Source: a virus | Taxonomy: Duplodnaviria > Heunggongvirae > Uroviricota > Caudoviricetes | DNA length: 17,234 nucleotides | Strand: one strand, 5' to 3' | Virus record (IMG/VR): IMGVR_UViG_2778261690_000005 | Span: 1-17,234 of that record | Notes under the pieces: model-generated | Told to the model about the DNA's origin: nothing | The model's database searches: none | The model's input: the letters and a program-made list of their open reading frames with translations, nothing else | Part shown: positions 2,953 to 17,234 of the stretch, one piece after another | Position numbering within the stretch: the first letter of the stretch is position 1 | Layout of the letters: each line of letters starts with the position of its first letter | Position numbers and translations under genes: made by a program

Positions 2953-3028
2953 TGGTGCTGGTTAACGGACTTGAACCGCTACCCATTCGCTTACAAGGCG
3001 ACTGCTCTACCATTGGAGCTAAACCAGC
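2953..3028 (-). tRNA. tRNA-Thr (anticodon UGU)
   Basis: Hand-folded 76-nt cloverleaf on the minus strand: 7-bp acceptor stem GCTGGTT/AACCAGC, D-stem GCTC/GAGC, anticodon loop CTTGTAA (U33, anticodon TGT, A37), T-arm AGCGG-TTCAAGT-CCGTT, discriminator A, encoded CCA. Confidence 0.7.
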
Positions 3029-3033
3029 ATGTT

Positions 3034-3108
3034 TGGCGGGACAGCGTGGGCTCGAACCACGATAAGAAGGTTAACAGCCTTCCGTAATGACCTTTATACG
3101 ACTGACCC
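3034..3108 (-). tRNA. tRNA-Asn (anticodon GUU), somewhat divergent
   Basis: Hand-folded 75-nt cloverleaf: perfect anticodon stem GAAGG/CCTTC with loop CTGTTAA, T-arm CGTGG-TTCGAGC-CCACG, encoded CCA. The acceptor stem GGGTCAG/CTGTCCC has one T-T mismatch and the D-stem is weak. Confidence 0.6.
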
Positions 3109-8975: not shown

Positions 8976-9018
8976 TCCCGCATTTCGGCGGGAATGAGGA
9001 CCATGACTGTTAAAGAGC
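8976..9018 (-). promoter_or_regulatory. nutR: boxA (GCTCTTTAAC) plus boxB hairpin (TCCCGCCGAAATGCGGGA)
   Basis: Located 8 nt downstream of the cro stop on the minus strand. Same boxA and boxB sequences recur at nutL (10650-10690). A palindromic hairpin at 8951-8968 (GCGCAT-CAAATT-ATGCGC) follows, as a possible tR1-like element. Confidence 0.7.
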
Positions 9019-9025
9019 GGTGTTA

Positions 9026-11048: not shown

Positions 11049-11348
11049 ATGACAGTAGTCATTACATATCTGGCTGACGATAACGCCAGAAATCGCCGCA
11101 GAGCACGCAGACAGGCTCAACGTGAACAGGCAATGCAAGAACAGCGATTGGCGCGAAAGATTGCGCTAAAGCTCTCTGGTTGCGTCAGAGCAGATAAAGC
11201 AGCATCACTCGGAAGCCTTCGCTGCAAGAAGGCAGAAGAAGTCGAGCGTAAACAGAACCGTATTTACTACCGCAAGCCACGCAGTGAAATGGGTGTGACT
11301 TGTGTTGGTCGCCAGAAAATGAAATTAGGCAGCAAACCACTTATTTGA
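11049..11348 (+). CDS. N: N antiterminator
   Basis: 99 aa with an N-terminal Arg-rich motif (DDNARNRRRARRQAQREQ) and a C-terminus resembling lambda N (YYRKPRSEMGVTCVGRQKMKLGSKPLI versus WYSKPGERGITCSGRQKIKGKSIPLI, from memory). RBS GGAGG with a 5-nt spacer; nutL and nutR are present. Confidence 0.85.
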   Translation: MTVVITYLADDNARNRRRARRQAQREQAMQEQRLARKIALKLSGCVRADKAASLGSLRCKKAEEVERKQNRIYYRKPRSEMGVTCVGRQKMKLGSKPLI

Positions 11349-11359
11349 GAGGAATTAAT

Positions 11360-11983
11360 ATGTCATCAATCCGCTTAACTACGAGAATGAAAGAGGAAAT
11401 CGCTCGTAACGCTTTAATTAAGTCTGGGGTTTTCACTGAACTTGAAGAAGTAACAAAGTTAAAGAACCAGCTTGCACTTGACGCCAGAGTTATTGCGTTT
11501 GGCGGGAAAAAGAAAACCGAAGAAGTGGACCAGCTGGCATCAAAGTTAATGGCTGCAAGTGAGGAACTTCAAAAGCTTGGATGTTCATTTTACTCACGCG
11601 ATGTCAGTTCAAGTTCGATTTATCTGACTGTATCTGGAAGAAGGGTTGGCTGGCATTCATACGGAAAAGACGGCAACGGTGAAGATATATTTCTCCCTAC
11701 CCCCAACAAAGATAAATGCATGTTTGACGCAGAACACAAAATAACAAAAAGGTTTGATGAAATCTGCGAATTGCAACAAAAACTTGAAGCCAGGAAAAAG
11801 GATATCGAATCAAATGTATGGGCTGCTTTGAACTCAGTCACAACAGTTAAGCGACTTATTGAGGTCTGGCCTGAAAGCAAAGAGTTGCTACCAAAAGAAG
11901 CAGATAAAGCAAGTGCAGCACTTCCTGCTTTACGGGTAGAAGATTTGAATAAGATGATTGGACTTCCTTCCGAGGCCGCATAG
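11360..11983 (+). CDS. Hypothetical protein (207 aa), first gene after N; function unknown
   Basis: ATG at 11360 preceded by GAGAGGAA, 12 nt after the N stop; stop codon embedded in a terminator hairpin. Predicted soluble, charged, partly coiled-coil. The six-frame start at 11300 overlaps N and is a likely over-extension. Confidence 0.65.
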   Translation: MSSIRLTTRMKEEIARNALIKSGVFTELEEVTKLKNQLALDARVIAFGGKKKTEEVDQLASKLMAASEELQKLGCSFYSRDVSSSSIYLTVSGRRVGWHSYGKDGNGEDIFLPTPNKDKCMFDAEHKITKRFDEICELQQKLEARKKDIESNVWAALNSVTTVKRLIEVWPESKELLPKEADKASAALPALRVEDLNKMIGLPSEAA

Positions 11984-12000
11984 TCGGCCTTTATTTTTGG
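11973..12000 (+). terminator. Intrinsic terminator (tL1-like) at the end of the 207-aa gene
   Basis: AGGCCG-CATAGT-CGGCCT stem-loop followed by TTTATTTTTGG; the gene's TAG stop sits in the loop. Confidence 0.6.
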
Positions 12001-12127
12001 CATAAACAACAGAATAAACACTGCACTGTGTATTCATTCCAACGAGTGAATACACGGAGCAATGTCGCTCGTAACTAAACAGGAGCCGACTTGTTCTGAT
12101 TATTGGAAATCTTCTTTGCCCTCCAGT

Positions 12128-12153
12128 GTGAGGGCTTTTTTATATGCATACCA
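12128..12153 (+). terminator. Intrinsic terminator (tL2-like) upstream of cIII
   Basis: GCCCTC-CAGTGT-GAGGGC followed by TTTTTTAT. Confidence 0.7.
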
Positions 12154-12207
12154 ATAACGCTTCACTCGAGGCGTTTTCGTTATGCAATCAAATATAAGGA
12201 GTTACCC

Positions 12208-12342
12208 ATGATGCACTTTCAGCTCGCGGGTAGCGGCGTCATGTCCGCTTTCTACCCGCACGAATCTGAATTATCACGCCGAGTTAAACAATTAATCAGA
12301 GCAGCAAAGAAACAACTGGAGGCGTTATGCGCAATGAAATAG
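12208..12342 (+). CDS. cIII: CIII (FtsH/HflB inhibitor) homolog
   Basis: 44 aa from ATG-ATG at 12208 (AAGGAG RBS, 6-nt spacer): MMHFQLAGSGVMSAFYPHESELSRRVKQLIRAAKK... resembles lambda CIII (MQYAIAGWPVAGCPSESLLERITRKLRDGWKRL) as recalled. The six-frame ORF start at 12103 is an extension. Confidence 0.7.
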   Translation: MMHFQLAGSGVMSAFYPHESELSRRVKQLIRAAKKQLEALCAMK

Positions 12343-12478
12343 CCATTAATCACCAGATGCTTCGTGCTGCACAGAACAAAGCAGTAATAGCCCGATTTAT
12401 TGGTGATTCAAAAATGTGGCTTGAAGCAAATAAAGCGATGAAATCAGCTATCAACCTTCCGTGGTATCGCAGGAAATG
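12327..12478 (+). CDS. Kil-like small protein (host division inhibitor candidate)
   Basis: 50-aa ORF overlapping the cIII 3' end, with GGAGG RBS. Central motif ARFIGDSKMW resembles lambda Kil (TFIGDEKMF) as I recall it; that recall is uncertain. Confidence 0.45.
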
Positions 12479-12560
12479 AGTTTTACAGATAACTGGTCAG
12501 ACGAAGAATTCATTCGTCAGATGAAAGAAATGCTCAATCAGCACAAAGAACAGGAGAAAG

Positions 12561-12872
12561 ATGATGATTCTGACTCTGAATGATAAGCGTGAAATATCGC
12601 AAATAATCGCAAGTTTTACTGATGAAGATTACGAACGAATCAACAGTGAAGTTGATCGCCTCTGCAAACGTTGCGACCCAATAAGCGAAATGCTTCGCTC
12701 ATATAAACCAGATGAACACACTAAGGACGCTATCGACTGGCTGGAAGATGATGACTGTAACTATCAGGAAAAAGCCGCTGAATGGTTCTGGGATGCAATA
12801 ACCGAAAGAGTTAAGGCTGAATATGCCTTCGCAATATTCAAACGCAGACACATTTTTGGAGAAGCTGCATGA
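12561..12872 (+). CDS. Hypothetical acidic protein (103 aa)
   Basis: ATG preceded by AGGAG; stop overlaps the recT start (ATGA). Acidic, with 4 Cys. No family recognised. Confidence 0.6.
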   Translation: MMILTLNDKREISQIIASFTDEDYERINSEVDRLCKRCDPISEMLRSYKPDEHTKDAIDWLEDDDCNYQEKAAEWFWDAITERVKAEYAFAIFKRRHIFGEAA

Positions 12873-13780
12873 GCAATATCGTTGAATTCGTTAAACAGCA
12901 GGAGCAGTTATTCTGCGGAGCATTGACTAAACAGACGGTGACATGGGCTAAGGAAAGCCAGTTTGCAATTCAGTATTTCCAGAAAAACGATTACCTGGCT
13001 AAAACAGCACTGGCAAATCCAACCAGCGCACAGAACGCCATCATCAATGTTGCGGCGATCGGCATCACCTTAAACCCGGCCAGCAAACTGGCTTATCTGG
13101 TTCCGCGCGACGGCATGGTGTGCCTTGATATCAGTTATATGGGATTGCTCCATATTGCAATGGAGTCTGGTGTTATCTCATGGGGTCAGGCAAAACTTGT
13201 TCATGCTAACGATACCTATGAGTCAAACGGGCTTGATAAAGCACCAACCCATAAATACAACGCCTTCGGTGATCGTGGTGATATCGTTGGCGTTTACTGC
13301 ACAGTTAAGACGCCAGCAGGTGATTATCTAACGGAAGAGATGAGTCTGGCTGAAATTGAGGCTGTAAGGAAAACAAGCAAGGCGGCCTTCAGCGATAAAG
13401 GACCATGGGTAAATCACTGGAATGAGATGGCGCGAAAGACGGTCGTAAAGCGTGCAAGCAAGTATTGGCCTAAGGCATCACGTCTTGATAGTGCTATTCA
13501 CGTACTAAACGAAGAAGAAGGTGTGTGGACTGAACCAGTTATGCCGCACAAATCAGAGGAAGATATCCGCGAAGATGAACGGAAACGCCAGCAGGAAATA
13601 ACGGATAAAGCACAACTTCTTTGTGATGAAATGGCTCAGGCAGAAAACATGGATGATTTGAAGCGATATTTTGCAGAAGCATATCGCCTGACATCTGGAA
13701 TGAAATTGCAGCAGAACGTACAAGCCATTTACGCAGAATGCAAAGCGAAACTGGAGGTTGCCAGTGAGCAAACTGTATGA
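12869..13780 (+). CDS. recT: RecT-family single-strand annealing recombinase
   Basis: 303 aa. Motif FSDKGPWVNHWNEMARKTVVKRASKYWPKAS matches the E. coli RecT region GPWVTHWEEMAKKTAIRRLFKYLP as recalled. Confidence 0.85.
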   Translation: MSNIVEFVKQQEQLFCGALTKQTVTWAKESQFAIQYFQKNDYLAKTALANPTSAQNAIINVAAIGITLNPASKLAYLVPRDGMVCLDISYMGLLHIAMESGVISWGQAKLVHANDTYESNGLDKAPTHKYNAFGDRGDIVGVYCTVKTPAGDYLTEEMSLAEIEAVRKTSKAAFSDKGPWVNHWNEMARKTVVKRASKYWPKASRLDSAIHVLNEEEGVWTEPVMPHKSEEDIREDERKRQQEITDKAQLLCDEMAQAENMDDLKRYFAEAYRLTSGMKLQQNVQAIYAECKAKLEVASEQTV

Positions 13781-14246
13781 AATTGCCAATGAATACGCAA
13801 AGCTGATGGATTCAGATTTAGAACCAGAGATGATTGCTGACACAATAGAAGGCATGGAAGGAGAATTTACCGATAAAATAGAGCAACTTCTTGCCATTAT
13901 TAAAAATGAATCTGGTTATGCTGAATGCCTCAAGGAAGAGGCAAAGTCACTAAATGAACGAGCCGCAGTAATTCAAAATAAGATTGACAACATTATGGCG
14001 TATATAGCGTCATCGCTTGAAATGGTTGGCAAGAAAAAGATTCGAGCAGGTATTCACCAGGTAACAATCCGCAAACCGTCAGAAACTGTAGAAATCATCG
14101 ACTCAAGCGCCATTCCTCCTGAATACGTTGAGTTTGAAACGACAATTAAAGCCGACAAGTTGGCAATCAAACACCAACTAAAAGCAGGAATAAATATCCC
14201 CGGCGCTCAACTCAAAGTTGGGAAACCTTCACTTCTTATCAAATAA
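13764..14246 (+). CDS. Gp157-like (Sipho_Gp157 family) protein associated with the recombinase
   Basis: About 160 aa, coiled-coil rich, N-terminus MSKLYEIANEYAKLM. GTG start with GGAGG RBS overlaps the recT 3' end. Family assignment is from memory. Confidence 0.55.
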   Translation: MSKLYEIANEYAKLMDSDLEPEMIADTIEGMEGEFTDKIEQLLAIIKNESGYAECLKEEAKSLNERAAVIQNKIDNIMAYIASSLEMVGKKKIRAGIHQVTIRKPSETVEIIDSSAIPPEYVEFETTIKADKLAIKHQLKAGINIPGAQLKVGKPSLLIK

Positions 14247-14257
14247 CGGTATCGCCT

Positions 14258-14572
14258 ATGAAAAAGACTCCATGGGAGAAATGGGAAGTCGATTTCTTAC
14301 GCGAAGTAGCGGCGACAATGCCAGTTGAAGTTATCGCTGAAAAACTGGAAAGGACTGAAAAAGCAGTAATGGCGAAAGCAACAAGGATTGGCGCTGACAT
14401 TGTTAGCCGACTTCGTGGAAGACGATGGACAAGAGCCGAAGTATCACTTTTCGGTAAGTTCTCCGCAGAAGAAATAGCAATTGCAACCTGCCGCTCAATT
14501 TATTCAGTAAGAGCTATGCGATACAAGCTAAAAAAACTCGATGAAGAAAGAGCAGGCATACGAATAAATTAA
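14258..14572 (+). CDS. Hypothetical protein with an internal tandem repeat (possible helix-turn-helix DNA binding)
   Basis: 104 aa. Two related ~45-aa halves (PWEKWEVDFLREV...VEVIAEKLERTEKAVMAKATRIG and RWTRAEVSLFGKF...AEEIAIATCRSIYSVRAMRYKL). Confidence 0.55.
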   Translation: MKKTPWEKWEVDFLREVAATMPVEVIAEKLERTEKAVMAKATRIGADIVSRLRGRRWTRAEVSLFGKFSAEEIAIATCRSIYSVRAMRYKLKKLDEERAGIRIN

Positions 14573-14588
14573 CATGGAGTAATTAACA

Positions 14589-14870
14589 ATGAAGCTAAAC
14601 ATAGACCTAGGCAAATATGTTATTACCGGAACAAAACACGATCTGATTCTTAGCGAAAGAGGAATTCTCAAAGAAGGCGAGAATGCAGGGAAAGAAACAC
14701 TAAGCCGTATCGGTTATTACAGCAAGTTTGAGCATCTGGTTAAAGAATTATGCAACCGTGAAATCCTGTTATCTCAGGCGCAGACACTACAGGATATTCA
14801 GCAACATATCGAGACTTTAGGTGTGTCACTTAGCATGGCTATTGACCAGTTAGTGGAGAGTAAATCATGA
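14589..14870 (+). CDS. Hypothetical protein (93 aa)
   Basis: ATG with GGAG RBS, co-directional with its neighbours; stop overlaps the next start (ATGA). Confidence 0.55.
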
Positions 14871-15034
14871 GAGGACTTGCATACAATCCCGGCATTCTTC
14901 CGGCAGAAATGATTATTCGCCAACGCGTAAAGCCAATGCCATCGAGAGAGGAATTGCTTAAGAGAAATTCTTTTCCATCAGTGAATCAAAACAAATATCT
15001 GAATGCGATGTGGCGCAAAGGAGGCAACCAGTGA
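14867..15034 (+). CDS. Hypothetical small protein (55 aa)
   Basis: ATG with GGAGAG RBS (7-nt spacer); start and stop both overlap neighbouring genes (ATGA, GTGA). Below the six-frame cutoff. Confidence 0.4.
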
Positions 15035-15300
15035 GTGAGTCAAAATGCCAAATTAATGGCAATAAGATAGAACCGTGCGCGGTGTTGGCAAAATCTCTCG
15101 AATATGGAAATCCAACATTCAAGAGTAAAGGCATATTTATCCCGGAGCGTGTGAACATAAACACCGGCGAGTCAGGCATAGATATTGCTCAAATTCACTC
15201 GGGGAAATATATCGGTCGTGGCGTTGCAATGTGCTTTTGCCCGTTCTGTGGTGAAAGTTTGAAAACGTGGGAAGCGGAGGCAGCCAGTGAGCAAAATTGA
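15031..15300 (+). CDS. Hypothetical Cys-containing protein (89 aa, possible zinc ribbon)
   Basis: GTG at 15031 preceded by AAGGAGG (6-nt spacer). Cys pairs C6/C16 and [10 protein letters not shown] near the C-terminus. The six-frame ORF from 15010 is the same frame with an earlier GTG. Confidence 0.5.
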
Positions 15301-15781
15301 CCATCAGGCACTGCGTGAGGTGGCGGAACGTGCAATTCCAGCAATGGAACGCCTGTTAATGTTGCCAGCTGATGATGATTTGTTAAGTGAACAGGAACTT
15401 AAAGATTACGGTGTGGATATTGATGCGCTCAACGCCTTCAAATTTCTGACCGGACCAGAAACCGTGCTGGCACTACTTGATGAACGGGAAGCAGACAAAA
15501 AGCGCATTGCAGAACTGGAAGCTCGGGAAATAAAACCAGCCAAAGGTGAAGTTCTTGTCGTTGTTTCTGGTTTTACTGGTTGCGGAAAAAGCGCCATTGC
15601 CGGGGAAATAGAAATCGCGATGAAGGCTATTGGTGTACCGGTTCAGTGGACTAATGGCGATGCGGAAAAGCGCATGACAGGAGCTGACTGGCTGACAGCG
15701 ATTGAGATGTACAAACCAACAGTGCGCATCATGGAAGTTAATGTGCCACGCGCCGCTGGCATTCGCATCAAAGGAGAGTGA
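15287..15781 (+). CDS. Hypothetical protein (164 aa), possibly Ead/Ea22-like
   Basis: GTG start with GGAGG RBS. N-terminus [19 protein letters not shown]; central coiled-coil. Family assignment is from memory and weak. Confidence 0.5.
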   Translation: MSKIDHQALREVAERAIPAMERLLMLPADDDLLSEQELKDYGVDIDALNAFKFLTGPETVLALLDEREADKKRIAELEAREIKPAKGEVLVVVSGFTGCGKSAIAGEIEIAMKAIGVPVQWTNGDAEKRMTGADWLTAIEMYKPTVRIMEVNVPRAAGIRIKGE

Positions 15782-15782
15782 T

Positions 15783-15992
15783 ATGGCTATCGCTGCAAGT
15801 TACACCATGCATCTCTATTGTGATTTCCTCCAGTGTACAGATGGCAAATATAAGTCGCCAGACTTCGGTGAGTATATAGGTACGTCATGGGCTGGCTGTG
15901 CAAAAAAGGAGCGCAAGGATGGCTGGCGAATAAGCAAAGACAAAACGCGTGCTTTTGCGCCCGGGCATAAAGTTTTGAGGATTAACAAATGA
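15783..15992 (+). CDS. Hypothetical small Cys-rich protein (69 aa)
   Basis: ATG preceded by AAGGAGAG; sequence MAIAASYTMHLYCDFLQCTDGKYKSPDFGEYIGTSWAGC.... The six-frame ORF from 15702 is an upstream extension overlapping the previous gene. Confidence 0.5.
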   Translation: MAIAASYTMHLYCDFLQCTDGKYKSPDFGEYIGTSWAGCAKKERKDGWRISKDKTRAFAPGHKVLRINK

Positions 15993-16708
15993 CCACTATA
16001 ACCAAAGAGCGACTGCTGACAATCAAGCAGTGGCGCGAAACATACGGACCGGGTAGCAACGTTGTACTGCCAGCAGAAGAAGCGGAAGAACTGGCGCGGA
16101 TTGCACTGACATCGCTGGAAGCAGAGCCGGTGGCTTATATTTTCAAACATCCGGCCGGGAAATTATTCTGGGCTTTAACGGATGAAAGCAATAAAGAGCA
16201 AGCGGACGTTATTCCTGTTTATGCTGCCGCGCCTGCGTCGGTTGTGCCGGATAATGCATCAGAGCCTCTTGCTTATGCTTACAAAGAGCTTACGCCTGAG
16301 ATTATGCGCAACCATTTAGCTGTATTCGAGCGATATGGAATAGCCCCAAACGATAGCTCTACCACAATTCAGGCACTGCGAATCGCGCTGGATGGTATAG
16401 AGCGGAGCGACGCCATGCTTCATGGTGCCGAACCTGTAAGCCAAACTTACAAGTTGAACGAGCTGTCGGGCAACTCTCCGGTAACTCCGGATGGTTGGAT
16501 AAGCTGTAGTGAGCAGATGCCGGAAGACACCAAAATGTTACTGGCATTTAGTCAAGGTGAAATCGTGGCCGCATATTGGAACTGGGTTGTAAATCCAATT
16601 GATTACAAAAAATATAGAGCTTTCACGTATTTATCAGGATATATCTTGGATGACGTAACCCACTGGATGCCTCTACCAGAACCGCCGCAGGAGGTTAACC
16701 GTGGCTAA
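15989..16708 (+). CDS. Hypothetical protein with a DUF551-like C-terminus
   Basis: 239 aa. C-terminal WMPLPEPP motif is typical of DUF551 phage proteins as recalled; ATGA overlap with the upstream gene. Confidence 0.6.
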   Translation: MTTITKERLLTIKQWRETYGPGSNVVLPAEEAEELARIALTSLEAEPVAYIFKHPAGKLFWALTDESNKEQADVIPVYAAAPASVVPDNASEPLAYAYKELTPEIMRNHLAVFERYGIAPNDSSTTIQALRIALDGIERSDAMLHGAEPVSQTYKLNELSGNSPVTPDGWISCSEQMPEDTKMLLAFSQGEIVAAYWNWVVNPIDYKKYRAFTYLSGYILDDVTHWMPLPEPPQEVNRG

Positions 16709-16740
16709 CCTGCAACTTGTCGTCAAAGGTGAATAACAAT

Positions 16741-16768
16741 CCTCGCACTCGCGGGGATTTCTTTTATC
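16741..16768 (+). terminator. Possible weak terminator after the DUF551 gene
   Basis: CCTCGC-ACTC-GCGGGG stem (one G-U pair) followed by ATTTCTTTTATC. Confidence 0.35.
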
Positions 16769-16808
16769 TGAACTCGCTACTGCGGGTTTTGTTTTATGGA
16801 GATGATAA

Positions 16809-16976
16809 ATGCACTTCCGAGTCACAGGTGAATGGAATGGAGAACCATTCAACAGAGTTATCGAAGCAGAGAACATCAACGACTGCTATGACCACTGGAT
16901 GATATGGGCGCAGATAGCACATGCAGACGTAACCAATATTCGAATTGAAGAACTGAAAGAACACCAAGCCGCCTGA
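16809..16976 (+). CDS. Hypothetical small protein (55 aa)
   Basis: ATG with GGAG RBS (7-nt spacer), reads MHFRVTGEWNGEPFNRVIEAENINDCYDHWMIWAQIAHADVTNIRIEELKEHQAA; stop lies inside a strong terminator. The opposite-strand ORF 16794-17042 is rejected. Confidence 0.45.
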   Translation: MHFRVTGEWNGEPFNRVIEAENINDCYDHWMIWAQIAHADVTNIRIEELKEHQAA

Positions 16977-16990
16977 TGGCGGTTTTTTCT
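16964..16990 (+). terminator. Intrinsic terminator
   Basis: GCCGCC-TGAT-GGCGG followed by TTTTTTCTT. Confidence 0.6.
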
Positions 16991-17033
16991 TGCCTGATTT
17001 GCAGGTTCGATTCCCTATTCGGAGATAGCACTC

Positions 17034-17234
17034 ATGCAACACGAACTACAACCTGATTCACTGGTTGATTTGAAATTCATCATGGCCGATACTGGCTTCG
17101 GTAAAACCTTCATCTATGACCGGATTAAGTCCGGCGACCTGCCAAAAGCCAAAGTTATCCACGGGCGAGCAAGATGGTTATATCGTGACCATTGTGAATT
17201 CAAAAATAAGCTCTTAAGCCGCGCCAATGGGTAA
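17034..17234 (+). CDS. AlpA/Xis-family DNA-binding protein (excisionase-like)
   Basis: 66 aa including stop at the window edge. Motif LKFIMADTGFGKTFIYDRIKSGDLPKAKVIHGRARWLYRD is typical of the AlpA/Vis-type excisionase family; an integrase is expected just beyond the window. Confidence 0.7.
   Translation: MQHELQPDSLVDLKFIMADTGFGKTFIYDRIKSGDLPKAKVIHGRARWLYRDHCEFKNKLLSRANG

Follow-up and report, generated by a model that had tools for sequence, protein, structure and literature searches.

The distal part of the pL operon, just before xis, is known in phage lambda and the Stx phages as the exo-xis region (orf60a, orf63, orf61, orf73, ea22, ea8.5 and orf55), where small early genes, none of them essential, form a mosaic. 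Ea22 proteins combine a conserved N-terminal segment, a central coiled coil that varies in length and a variable C-terminal domain (PMC10834534). Tetramerisation and a pro-lysogenic phenotype are on record for lambda and Stx-phage Ea22, and the phenotypes published for the Ea22 family and for the rest of the exo-xis region are effects on lysogenisation and induction, including altered induction of Stx prophages. Orf55 has been modelled as similar to T7 Gp2, a likeness that the authors of the model themselves term speculative (PMC8614690). In the P22-like phages, the corresponding genes are the ea region of P22 (orf56, eaE, orf45, eaF, eaD, eaI, eaA, eaG and eaC), genes 19-24 of Sf6 and the hka genes of HK620; P22 further carries abc1, whose product is associated with anti-RecBCD activity, directly 3' of erf. 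A defined activity comes from HK446, whose Oad2 (gp27) inhibits the P2 OLD defence; the same preprint proposes a reservoir of anti-immunity genes in loci linked to recombination (bioRxiv 10.64898/2026.07.10.737580). Finally, Escherichia coli K-12 carries the remnant prophage CPS-53/KplE1 (yfdP-yfdQ-yfdR-yfdS-yfdT-ypdJ-torI).

Here we compare these systems with a locus in a 17,234-nucleotide stretch of a Caudoviricetes virus (the window; IMG/VR record IMGVR_UViG_2778261690_000005). The region is of a known kind, an ordinary, highly shuffled accessory block of lambda-/P22-like prophages. We consider it probable that the interval is the distal, non-essential end of the pL operon of a P22-like (Sf6/HK620-type) prophage, mosaic in its make-up and dependent on N for its expression, and that the proteins of its most variable part are directed at the host.

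Gene content and layout

Eight co-directional genes, g1 to g8, fill the interval between Gp157 and xis (Table 1). The original prediction had counted seven; its size range of 55-239 aa matches the ORFs, and the tight co-directional run that it described is there, with all ORFs on the + strand. The overlapping start and stop codons were also found (ATGA at g2/g3 and g6/g7, GTGA at g3/g4); in addition, g4 and g5 overlap by 14 nt and a 1-nt gap separates g5 from g6. Tight packing describes the junctions from g2 to g7 well but not g8, which lies 100 nt from g7 beyond two terminator-like hairpins. SD-like motifs stand 6-9 nt 5' of seven of the eight starts, the exception being g1, in which no SD is recognisable. 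Profile alignments begin at residue 8 (phrog_4030) and residue 28 (phrog_926) of longer ORFs, and we therefore place the start of g4 at 15031, a GTG inside the GTGA overlap, and that of g6 at the ATG at 15783. Independent gene calls on the source contig return the same genes, and family searches gave no meaningful support for antisense ORFs of the cluster.

Table 1. Coordinates of the cluster, its parts and its surroundings within the window
Feature	Position	Strand	Length (aa)	Assignment and match
N-like gene	11049-11348	+		antiterminator
Hairpin region	11972-12175	+		terminator-like
cIII	12103-12342	+
kil	12327-12479	+
RecT	12869-13780	+
Gp157	13758-14246	+
Cluster	14258-16976	+		g1 to g8
g1	14258-14572	+	104	Abc1-family HTH-like protein; phrog_323, E=2.8e-20
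g2	14589-14870	+	93	DUF5405 (P2 orf83 family); PF17399, 25.9 bits (cut-off 21.6); phrog_154, E=7.6e-31
g3	14867-15034	+	55	DUF2737; PF10930, E=9e-32, 109.2 bits (cut-off 25)
g4	15031-15300	+	89	DUF7446 (PGAP name of homologue); phrog_4030, E=5.5e-32
g5	15287-15781	+	164	Ead/Ea22 family; PF13935, residues 2-80, E=6.3e-20, 72.6 bits (cut-off 27)
g5, conserved N-terminal and coiled-coil part	15290-15526	+
g5, portable C-terminal domain	15539-15757	+	about 72	Walker-A-like GxTGxGKS, strand ending in E
g6	15783-15992	+	69	Cys3-His protein; phrog_926, E=2.5e-32
g7	15989-16708	+	239	EaA-like mosaic
g7, DUF551	16493-16690	+		PF04448, residues 169-234, E=5.6e-21, 75.6 bits (cut-off 22)
Lambda-like DNA	16733-17000			about 98% identical to lambda, hairpins included
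Tandem hairpins, g7-g8 gap	16738-16759, 16770-16789	+		intrinsic-terminator-like (pattern scan)
g8	16809-16976	+	55	lambda Orf55 (lambdap35), 55/55 residues identical
Hairpin directly 3' of g8	16966-16985	+		intrinsic-terminator-like (pattern scan)
xis	17034-17234	+		TorI/HkaC-type excisionase; distal cluster boundary, beside prophage end

All eight genes fall into catalogued phage families (Pfam, PHROG, PGAP naming), and g8 is lambda Orf55, so the earlier statement that none is assignable does not hold at the level of families. It does hold, for nearly all of them, at the level of biochemical function: beyond family-level links (Abc1, Ea22), none of g1 to g8 has homology to a protein of demonstrated activity. 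An internal tandem repeat, which had also been proposed, reached significance in no protein; the best score was that of g7 (z=2.3, a short EP[VL]AY motif), and g1 scored z=-0.5, though both of its halves match the same phrog_323 segment.

The cluster was correctly predicted to lie between the recombination module and xis, in the variable early-left region of a lambdoid element, here a P22-like prophage. A repressor gene also lies upstream on the same strand. Neither pL nor nutL was located, a boxA-like sequence turned up only on the minus strand near cII, and a scan for sigma-70-like promoters returned none anywhere on the + strand of the cluster. Transcription would start at pL, 5' of the gene for the N-like antiterminator. 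Since the terminator-like hairpins must be passed, expression of g1 to g8 should need N-type antitermination, and the proteins would be made only while it is active, i.e. soon after the prophage is induced or a cell is infected. By way of the overlapping stop and start codons, translation may be coupled from g2 to g7.

The prophage resides in E. coli assembly GCA_002225885.1 at argW, adjoining dsdC, and its best matches are of the Lederbergvirus type. Its xis protein is 100% identical to Sf6 gp18 and to K-12 TorI, and the flank downstream of xis on the source contig matches the attR-dsdC junction of CPS-53. The two prophages thus share the integration site, the right prophage end and an identical TorI, and in CPS-53/KplE1 the DUF551 protein YfdS sits in the equivalent region (PMC4776307). 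With torI set aside, no gene of the K-12 remnant has a BLASTP match among g1 to g8.

Conserved genes next to the recombination module

To compare the locus with its relatives, we used 80 loci picked through near-identical Gp157, which are not phylogenetically independent; g1 occurs in 80 of them, g3 in 78, g8 in 46, g2 in 33, g6 in 4 and g4 in 1. The copies of g1 are 91-100% identical across two RecT alleles (87% and 99%), and three are shortened, two of these by a contig end. From its presence in every Gp157-anchored locus we conclude that g1 travels with the recombination module and not with the variable part.

P22 Abc1 is the closest described relative of g1. Both match phrog_323 strongly (E=1.3e-23 for Abc1 in a profile search), and both lie just downstream of genes for ssDNA annealing or end protection, g1 directly 3' of Gp157. 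Residues 2-48 of g1 align with the profile segment that is matched by the C-terminal half of Abc1, the two matched segments overlapping at 145-190, and a g1 relative in phage Gally is annotated as 'Anti-RecBCD protein 1'. Pairwise BLASTP of g1 against Abc1 gave no alignment at E<=100. The two also differ in that g1 appears to carry two copies of the motif found in the C-terminal half of Abc1, and in that Abc1 is partnered with Erf and Abc2, g1 with RecT and Gp157. Most likely, g1 would assist phage recombination or protect it against RecBCD.

The next two genes, g2 and g3, are a semi-conserved pair that ends the recombination module in many lambdoid phages. The protein g2 is 95% identical to Sf6 gp24 and 98% to HK446 gp29 and is found in 158 phage records, P2-like phages included; g3 is 77% identical to P22 orf56, 98% to Sf6 gp23 and 94% to HK446 gp28.

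A hypervariable slot

Beyond g3 the picture changes. Among 35 loci with identical flanks, the slot occupied here by g4 to g7 ranges from 1.6 to 4.6 kb and holds 91 ORF clusters. These four are the only truly hypervariable genes, g1 and g3 being near-constant with RecT-Gp157, and the early view of the run as accessory genes holds overall. The cluster is a mosaic of independently exchanging cassettes: no phage or E. coli record covers at least 80% of the 3-kb region, pieces of it occur in 568 phage records and in 3967 of 5426 genomes, and the combination of genes is absent from every phage and E. coli record searched.

With P22 and Sf6, phages of the same virus group, the cluster shares g3 (orf56/gp23), g2 (Sf6 gp24), the EaD/Ea22-family g5, the EaA-like g7 and xis (Sf6 gp18); g4, g6 and g8 are without counterpart in either phage, and EaC, EaE, EaF, EaG and EaI of P22 are without counterpart here. 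With lambda it shares position, an Ead/Ea22-family gene and Orf55 with its flanking hairpins, whereas orf60a, orf63, orf61, orf73 and ea8.5 have no homologues in the cluster, RecT-Gp157-g1 stands in place of Exo-Bet-Gam, and the C-terminal domain of lambda Ea22 is unrelated to that of g5.

The two Cys-motif proteins that had been predicted are g4 and g6, and their motif residues are conserved across homologues. In g4 the cysteines are C6, C16, C70 and C73; over the 65 clusters of its family the first two never change and the last two, in the motif CPFC, hardly do. This small Cys4 protein probably binds zinc. It is known from 19 phage records, including P7 and Rac-SA53, and the named clusters of its family are all from Enterobacteriaceae. 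The conserved residues of g6 are C13, C18, C39 and H62, and the protein recurs in 401 phage records, at 85-96% identity in Stx phages and about 42% in virulent Ackermannviridae. The predicted DUF551-like protein is g7, which is itself a mosaic: its N-terminus (41% identity, E=4e-8) and C-terminus (43%, E=7e-14) resemble P22 EaA, and residues 142-171, its linker, share 83% identity with a stretch of the Ead/Ea22 protein Sf6 gp21. An Ea22/EaA-type protein occurs in 35 of the 35 loci that share flanks with this one.

What might the slot proteins do? We infer that they are small host-directed binders. Both g5 and g7 would follow the Ea22 design, in which a conserved oligomerising N-terminal part carries an exchangeable C-terminal domain, and by analogy with the lambda/Stx exo-xis region and with HK446 Oad2, the slot proteins would tune the lysis-lysogeny decision and/or neutralise host defence or repair proteins.

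A sharper version of this idea, in which the slot is mainly a counter-defence hotspot where each protein inhibits a particular immunity or repair protein and lysis-lysogeny regulation plays no main part, seems to us possible though rather unlikely. It has precedents in Oad2 acting against OLD and in Abc2 and Gam acting against RecBCD. In HK446, Oad2 holds exactly the position of g4 to g7: the counterparts of g2 (DUF5405, 98% identical) and g3 (DUF2737, 94%) immediately precede it and xis lies beyond, and the preprint's proposal of an anti-immunity reservoir extends to loci of this kind. The extreme turnover within identical flanks fits such a role, as do the relatives of g6 in strictly virulent Ackermannviridae, phages without a lysogeny decision to regulate. 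However, this support is one of position. Oad2, a relative of EaE, resembles none of g1 to g8 in sequence, and EaE has no relative in the cluster; the whole window holds no homologue of Oad2 or of another characterised anti-defence protein. BLASTP and tblastn found no match inside the interval for Oad2 or Abc2 (P22, Sf6, HK446), lambda Gam and Ral likewise had none there, and a PADLOC search with the eight proteins gave no match at E<=0.01. Moreover, the phenotypes published for the Ea22 family and the exo-xis genes are of lysogenisation and induction. We therefore retain the broader reading of host-directed slot proteins.

A Walker-A motif on an Ea22 scaffold

The exact g5 protein is held by NCBI as an 'ead/Ea22-like family protein'. 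Its variants, 164-250 aa long, have an identical N-terminus and C-terminal domain and differ in alignment by central inserts of 28-85 aa, and the C-terminal tail AGIRIKGE is common to g5 and lambda Ea22 and nearly the same in P22 EaD (AGIKVKGE). An AF2 model of full-length g5 places helices at residues 6-79, at low confidence (pLDDT 47.8).

The C-terminal domain is the only item of the cluster for which we found no described family. There, GFTGCGKS is preceded by VLVVVS and matches the Walker A pattern GxxxxGK[ST] after a beta strand. The G, G, K and S of the motif are invariant in 34 diverse sequences of the domain, and across 442 cluster representatives the motif never varies. The domain falls in no Pfam or PDB family, a PDB sequence search gave no match to 8DSX, the domain of lambda Ea22, and we came across no paper connecting Ea22 with a Walker motif. 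A normal P-loop NTPase was considered and rejected, for the complete three-layer alpha/beta fold (at least five strands) and the Walker B motif are missing.

Could the domain be something smaller? It would run from a strand through the Walker-A loop and a helix to an acidic strand, a minimal P-loop module below the size of a normal NTPase. Such a module may be a portable cassette that rides not only on the oligomerising Ea22 scaffold but also on numerous unrelated phage proteins. Once oligomerised, the module could bind nucleotides or phosphorylated ligands such as nucleic-acid ends or nucleotide second messengers; alternatively, it could act as a mimic of a host P-loop protein and poison it. 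That such a module, whether oligomer-borne ligand binder or mimic, represents an undescribed class of effector is speculative, and we would bet against it.

The orf55 cassette and the reality of the genes

At the distal end, g8 differs from lambda orf55 by four nucleotides within the ORF, all synonymous. The two hairpins in the gap before it have folding energies of -13.1 and -10.3 kcal/mol (z about -4) and are conserved in lambda except for two changes, of which one falls in a U tract and the other in a loop. The hairpin that follows, AAGCCGCC-TGAT-GGCGGTTT and then TTTCTT, has a folding energy of -13.0 kcal/mol and is identical in lambda.

This arrangement raises the question of whether some of the genes, g8 especially, are morons, expressed from the repressed prophage to the benefit of the lysogen through superinfection exclusion, defence or physiology. 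The gene forms a discrete cassette, about 270 bp long and closed by a terminator at its 3' side, that is 98% identical to an otherwise different phage; it sits right at the prophage end beside the host gene dsdC, and its neighbour TorI is, according to the K-12 annotation, a host-directed inhibitor of a response regulator. Yet the consensus scan, which weak or activated promoters may escape, placed no sigma-70 promoter upstream of g8, the hairpins 5' of it would stop read-through and not drive expression, the PADLOC search was without a match, and all genes are co-oriented with pL and joined by operon-type junctions. We judge moron function improbable, and take g8 with the other genes as part of the pL operon.

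It is scarcely credible that a number of the ORFs are functionless, whether through decay or as chance reading frames. In favour of that view, laboratory phages can do without the region, pseudogenised DUF551 and hypothetical genes occur in related E. coli loci, and g1 is without an SD motif; against it, all eight ORFs are intact with end-to-end PHROG or Pfam profile matches, pN/pS against related loci (a crude measure, counted on non-independent variants) is low at 0.06-0.19 for g1, g2, g3, g6 and g8 (0.06 for g1, 0.09 for g2, 0.16 for g3), functional-looking motifs are kept in homologues down to 30-45% identity, and every change relative to lambda orf55 is silent.

Implications

By itself, the cluster opens no long-standing question, and its biological weight is that of its category. 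For annotation, there are several gains: the gene count is corrected to eight, g1 is an Abc1-family protein that belongs to the recombination module, g8 can be named lambda orf55, and the prophage is a complete relative, at the same site, of the CPS-53/KplE1 remnant of K-12. Novelty in kind is conceivable for one element alone, the Walker-A mini-domain of g5. Because the slot between the DUF2737 gene and xis has yielded the proven oad2, and because exo-xis genes alter the induction of Stx prophages, g4 to g7 are reasonable candidates for screens for counter-defence or for modulation of lysogeny.

Gene layout

Eight plus-strand ORFs, which we number g1 to g8 in order, occupy the interval between the genes for Gp157 and the excisionase Xis; the original prediction had placed the cluster correctly but counted seven genes. 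The starts of g4 and g6 were set by PHROG profile alignments, whose first aligned positions in the longest ORFs are residues 8 and 28, respectively. There are ATGA junctions at g2/g3 and g6/g7, a GTGA junction at g3/g4, an overlap of 14 nt at g4/g5, and gaps of 1 nt at g5/g6 and 100 nt at g7/g8, and an SD-like motif lies 6–9 nt 5' of the start in seven of the eight. Gene calls made independently for the publicly available source contig recover the same eight genes. Crude pN/pS values against variants in related loci are 0.06 for g1, 0.09 for g2, 0.16 for g3, 0.18 for g6 and 0.19 for g8, and are indicative only, as the variants are not phylogenetically independent; the protein families that include g4, g5 and g7 have conserved motifs. 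Antisense ORFs (63–111 aa) are without family support except for one marginal 21-residue match. Rfam places no RNA family inside the interval; outside it are two tRNA genes only (RF00005, 61.5 and 53 bits), both within the rightward late-regulatory part of the prophage. A predicted internal tandem repeat fails a shuffle test, the internal-repeat test is negative for all eight proteins, and TRF returns only a trivial 9-bp, two-copy repeat.

Features of the cluster and its surroundings (window positions)
Feature	Position	Strand	Remark
tRNA gene	2956-3028	-	
tRNA gene	3037-3108	-	
boxA-like site	9011-9019	-	just upstream of cII ORF
Gene after N	11300-11983	+	between N-like antiterminator and cIII
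Terminator-like hairpin	11972-11991	+	between gene after N and cIII
Terminator-like hairpin	12118-12135	+	between gene after N and cIII
Terminator-like hairpin	12156-12175	+	between gene after N and cIII
Small ORF	12476-12583	+	35 aa, between kil and 103-aa ORF
Gp157	13758-14246	+	flanking gene
g1	14258-14572	+	104 aa
g2	14589-14870	+	93 aa
g3	14867-15034	+	55 aa
g4	15031-15300	+	89 aa, GTG start
g5	15287-15781	+	164 aa, GTG start
g5 tail and putative exchange junction	15757-15800		
g6	15783-15992	+	69 aa
g7	15989-16708	+	239 aa
Lambda-like segment	16733-17000		~98% identical to lambda
g8	16809-16976	+	55 aa
xis	17034-17234		flanking gene

Prophage setting

The exact g5 protein is present on E. 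coli contig NLHD01000040.1 (assembly GCA_002225885.1), on which xis is followed 3' by dsdC-dsdX-dsdA, emrYK and evgAS. Upstream of the cluster, the plus strand carries genes for a cI-type repressor, an N-like antiterminator, cIII, kil, a 103-aa ORF, RecT and Gp157, and the minus strand carries cro, cII, O and a DnaB-type helicase gene. The best DNA matches of the region are Lederbergvirus phages. The excisionase shares 100% identity with both K-12 TorI and Sf6 gp18, and the sequence beyond xis matches the K-12 CPS-53 attR junction; these matches identify the region as the right arm of a prophage that is P22-like (Sf6/HK620-type) and sits at argW. In the part of the source contig past the window (11949-20495), the prophage ends ~100 bp from the window end and abuts dsdC, as does the CPS-53/KplE1 remnant in K-12. 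The prophage of the window appears to be related to this cryptic element and to be full-length.

The gene that follows N has a precomputed Pfam match to PF18757 (Nmad5) and a further match to phrog_1965, a family without assigned function. The 35-aa ORF after kil is 86% identical over its first 21 residues to HK446 Gp33, a reported trigger of the P2 OLD defence (bioRxiv 10.64898/2026.07.10.737580); its remainder differs.

Core and accessory content

We scanned 80 IMG/VR loci, anchored on Gp157, for the proteins of the window. The g1 protein is found in all 80, at 91–100% identity and across two RecT alleles (three copies are shortened), and g3 in 78, whereas g8 occurs in 46, g2 in 33, g6 in four and g4 in one. 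Exact counterparts of g5 and g7 are rare, but every locus has some Ea22/EaA-type protein. In the 35 loci in which the DUF2737 gene (g3) is the same and the TorI gene identical, the intervening slot spans 1.6–4.6 kb and holds 91 ORF clusters. Thus, the interval consists of four parts, namely the module-linked g1, the semi-conserved pair g2/g3, the hypervariable slot g4–g7 and the orf55 cassette. Pieces of the 3-kb interval are present in 3967 of 5426 genomes, and no record among the phage or complete E. coli genome records searched covers at least 80% of it.

Protein families of the cluster

The original view that none of these genes is assignable was overstated, as all eight can be placed in known families. 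NCBIfam and PADLOC yielded no usable match for the cluster proteins, nor did PDB sequence searches with g1, g2, g4, g5, g7, g8 and the g6 profile.

Adjoining Gp157 (PHROGs label "Mu Gam-like end protection"), g1 matches phrog_323 (E=2.8e-20), as does P22 Abc1 (E=1.3e-23). The first half of g1 aligns to profile positions 145–192, where the C-terminal half of Abc1 also matches, and the second half of g1 has a weak match to the profile (E=0.024); pairwise BLASTP of g1 against P22 Abc1 finds no similarity. The phage Gally annotators already label the g1 protein "Anti-RecBCD protein 1", and the most plausible role of g1 is within the recombination and anti-RecBCD machinery. Next to it, g2 is a DUF5405 protein (95% identical to Sf6 gp24) and g3 a DUF2737 protein (98% identical to Sf6 gp23, 77% to P22 orf56). 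We did not adopt the phrog_154/DUF5405 label "replication initiation protein" for g2, which we could trace only to an Sf6 note, "similar to phage P2 gene Orf83", with no functional evidence found.

The g4 family, DUF7446 in PGAP naming, comprises 65 clusters, all named ones from Enterobacteriaceae. Since C6 and C16 are invariant and C70 and C73 nearly so, the family pattern suggests a putative Cys4 zinc site. The g4 profile gives one weak match to the archaeal RpoM-2/TFS4 zinc ribbon 7oqy_Y (whole-sequence E=9e-4, per-stretch E=0.4 and 53); we reject homology, as the match rests on the fCPxCG knuckle only, which may still hint at a zinc-ribbon-type site. Also rejected is the identification of g4 as the Sf6 "Lar-like restriction alleviation protein": that RefSeq label belongs to gp20, which has only a CPFCG motif in common with g4 (8 residues, E=0.11). 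The g6 protein belongs to phrog_926, a family conserving C13, C18, C39 and H62; relatives occur in 401 phage records, among them virulent Ackermannviridae (~42% identity). In one relative, P0360, an N-terminal module common to HK446 Oad2 and K-12 YfdS (MKQM.LIEMDGFLKGKCIPRDLKVNETNAEY) is joined to a g6-family C-terminal half, an apparent fusion that shows mosaic exchange within genes. The g7 protein is P22 EaA-like at both ends and has a C-terminal DUF551 and a linker with 83% identity to part of Sf6 gp21.

The g5 protein is an Ead/Ea22 protein (PF13935, residues 2–80). Its variants, of 164–250 aa, have the same N-terminus and the same C-terminal domain, with inserts in the central region setting them apart, an arrangement that matches the reported Ea22 layout of N-terminus, coiled-coil and exchangeable C-terminal domain (PMC10834534). 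The C-terminal domains of g5 and lambda Ea22 are unrelated. With residues 82–164 as query, a full HMMER search found 442 cluster representatives at E<=1e-3, in which this type of domain occurs at either end of proteins of 110–623 aa; none of the 10 carriers scanned has a Pfam domain over it. Its conserved core reads GEVLVxVSGxTGxGKSAxAGEIEI...W..EK..T..DW..A.E.YxPxVxIxExN, with an invariant Walker A motif, an invariant final acidic residue and near-invariance at most other core positions. A Foldseek comparison of a model of this domain with PDB and BFVD found nothing at E<=1e-3, and an AF2 model of full-length g5 was discarded as too poor (pLDDT 47.8). Despite their unrelated C-terminal domains, g5 and lambda Ea22 share the terminal tail AGIRIKGE, nearly the same as that of P22 EaD (AGIKVKGE). 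The tail-encoding DNA of g5 also holds the SD sequence of the next gene (AAAGGAGAG), and this stretch looks like a conserved junction for cassette exchange.

Finally, g8 is 100% identical to lambda Orf55, with four nucleotide differences from lambda orf55, all synonymous, and lies in a lambda-like segment with sharp boundaries. Lambda Orf55 has been modelled with high confidence and speculatively likened to the RNA polymerase inhibitor T7 Gp2 (PMC8614690).

Transcription and possible roles

Within the lambda-like segment, two tandem hairpins with U tracts (-13.1 and -10.3 kcal/mol) lie 5' of orf55 and a third (-13.0 kcal/mol) directly 3' of it; a pattern scan detected no sigma-70 consensus promoter 5' of g8. 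Three more plus-strand hairpins precede cIII in a position analogous to the lambda tL terminators, an analogy implying that everything downstream would depend on antitermination. Given these terminator-like hairpins and no promoter found 5' of g8, we infer that the cluster would be transcribed only under N-type antitermination, i.e. early. A nutL search for a boxA pattern found no plus-strand site upstream of the N-like gene; the boxA-like CGCTCTTTA on the minus strand is a candidate nutR.

Position, orientation, coupling, mosaic structure and family memberships of the cluster are established; the proteins themselves would act as small host-directed binders. Two precedents guide these proposed roles. 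[quoted passage not shown] The oad2 gene directly follows gp29 and gp28 (98% and 94% identical to g2 and g3) and precedes xis, i.e. it occupies the slot of g4–g7, and the slot genes may likewise serve in counter-defence. As the window holds no Oad2 homologue, it is position that suggests this role; the g6 relatives in virulent phages strengthen the case, since such phages make no lysogeny decision.

The cluster is the P22-type counterpart of the lambda exo-xis region. The region is of a known kind and built from known families, and its gene combination occurs in no record searched. Only one part, the g5 mini-domain with its Walker-A motif, might be of a new kind.
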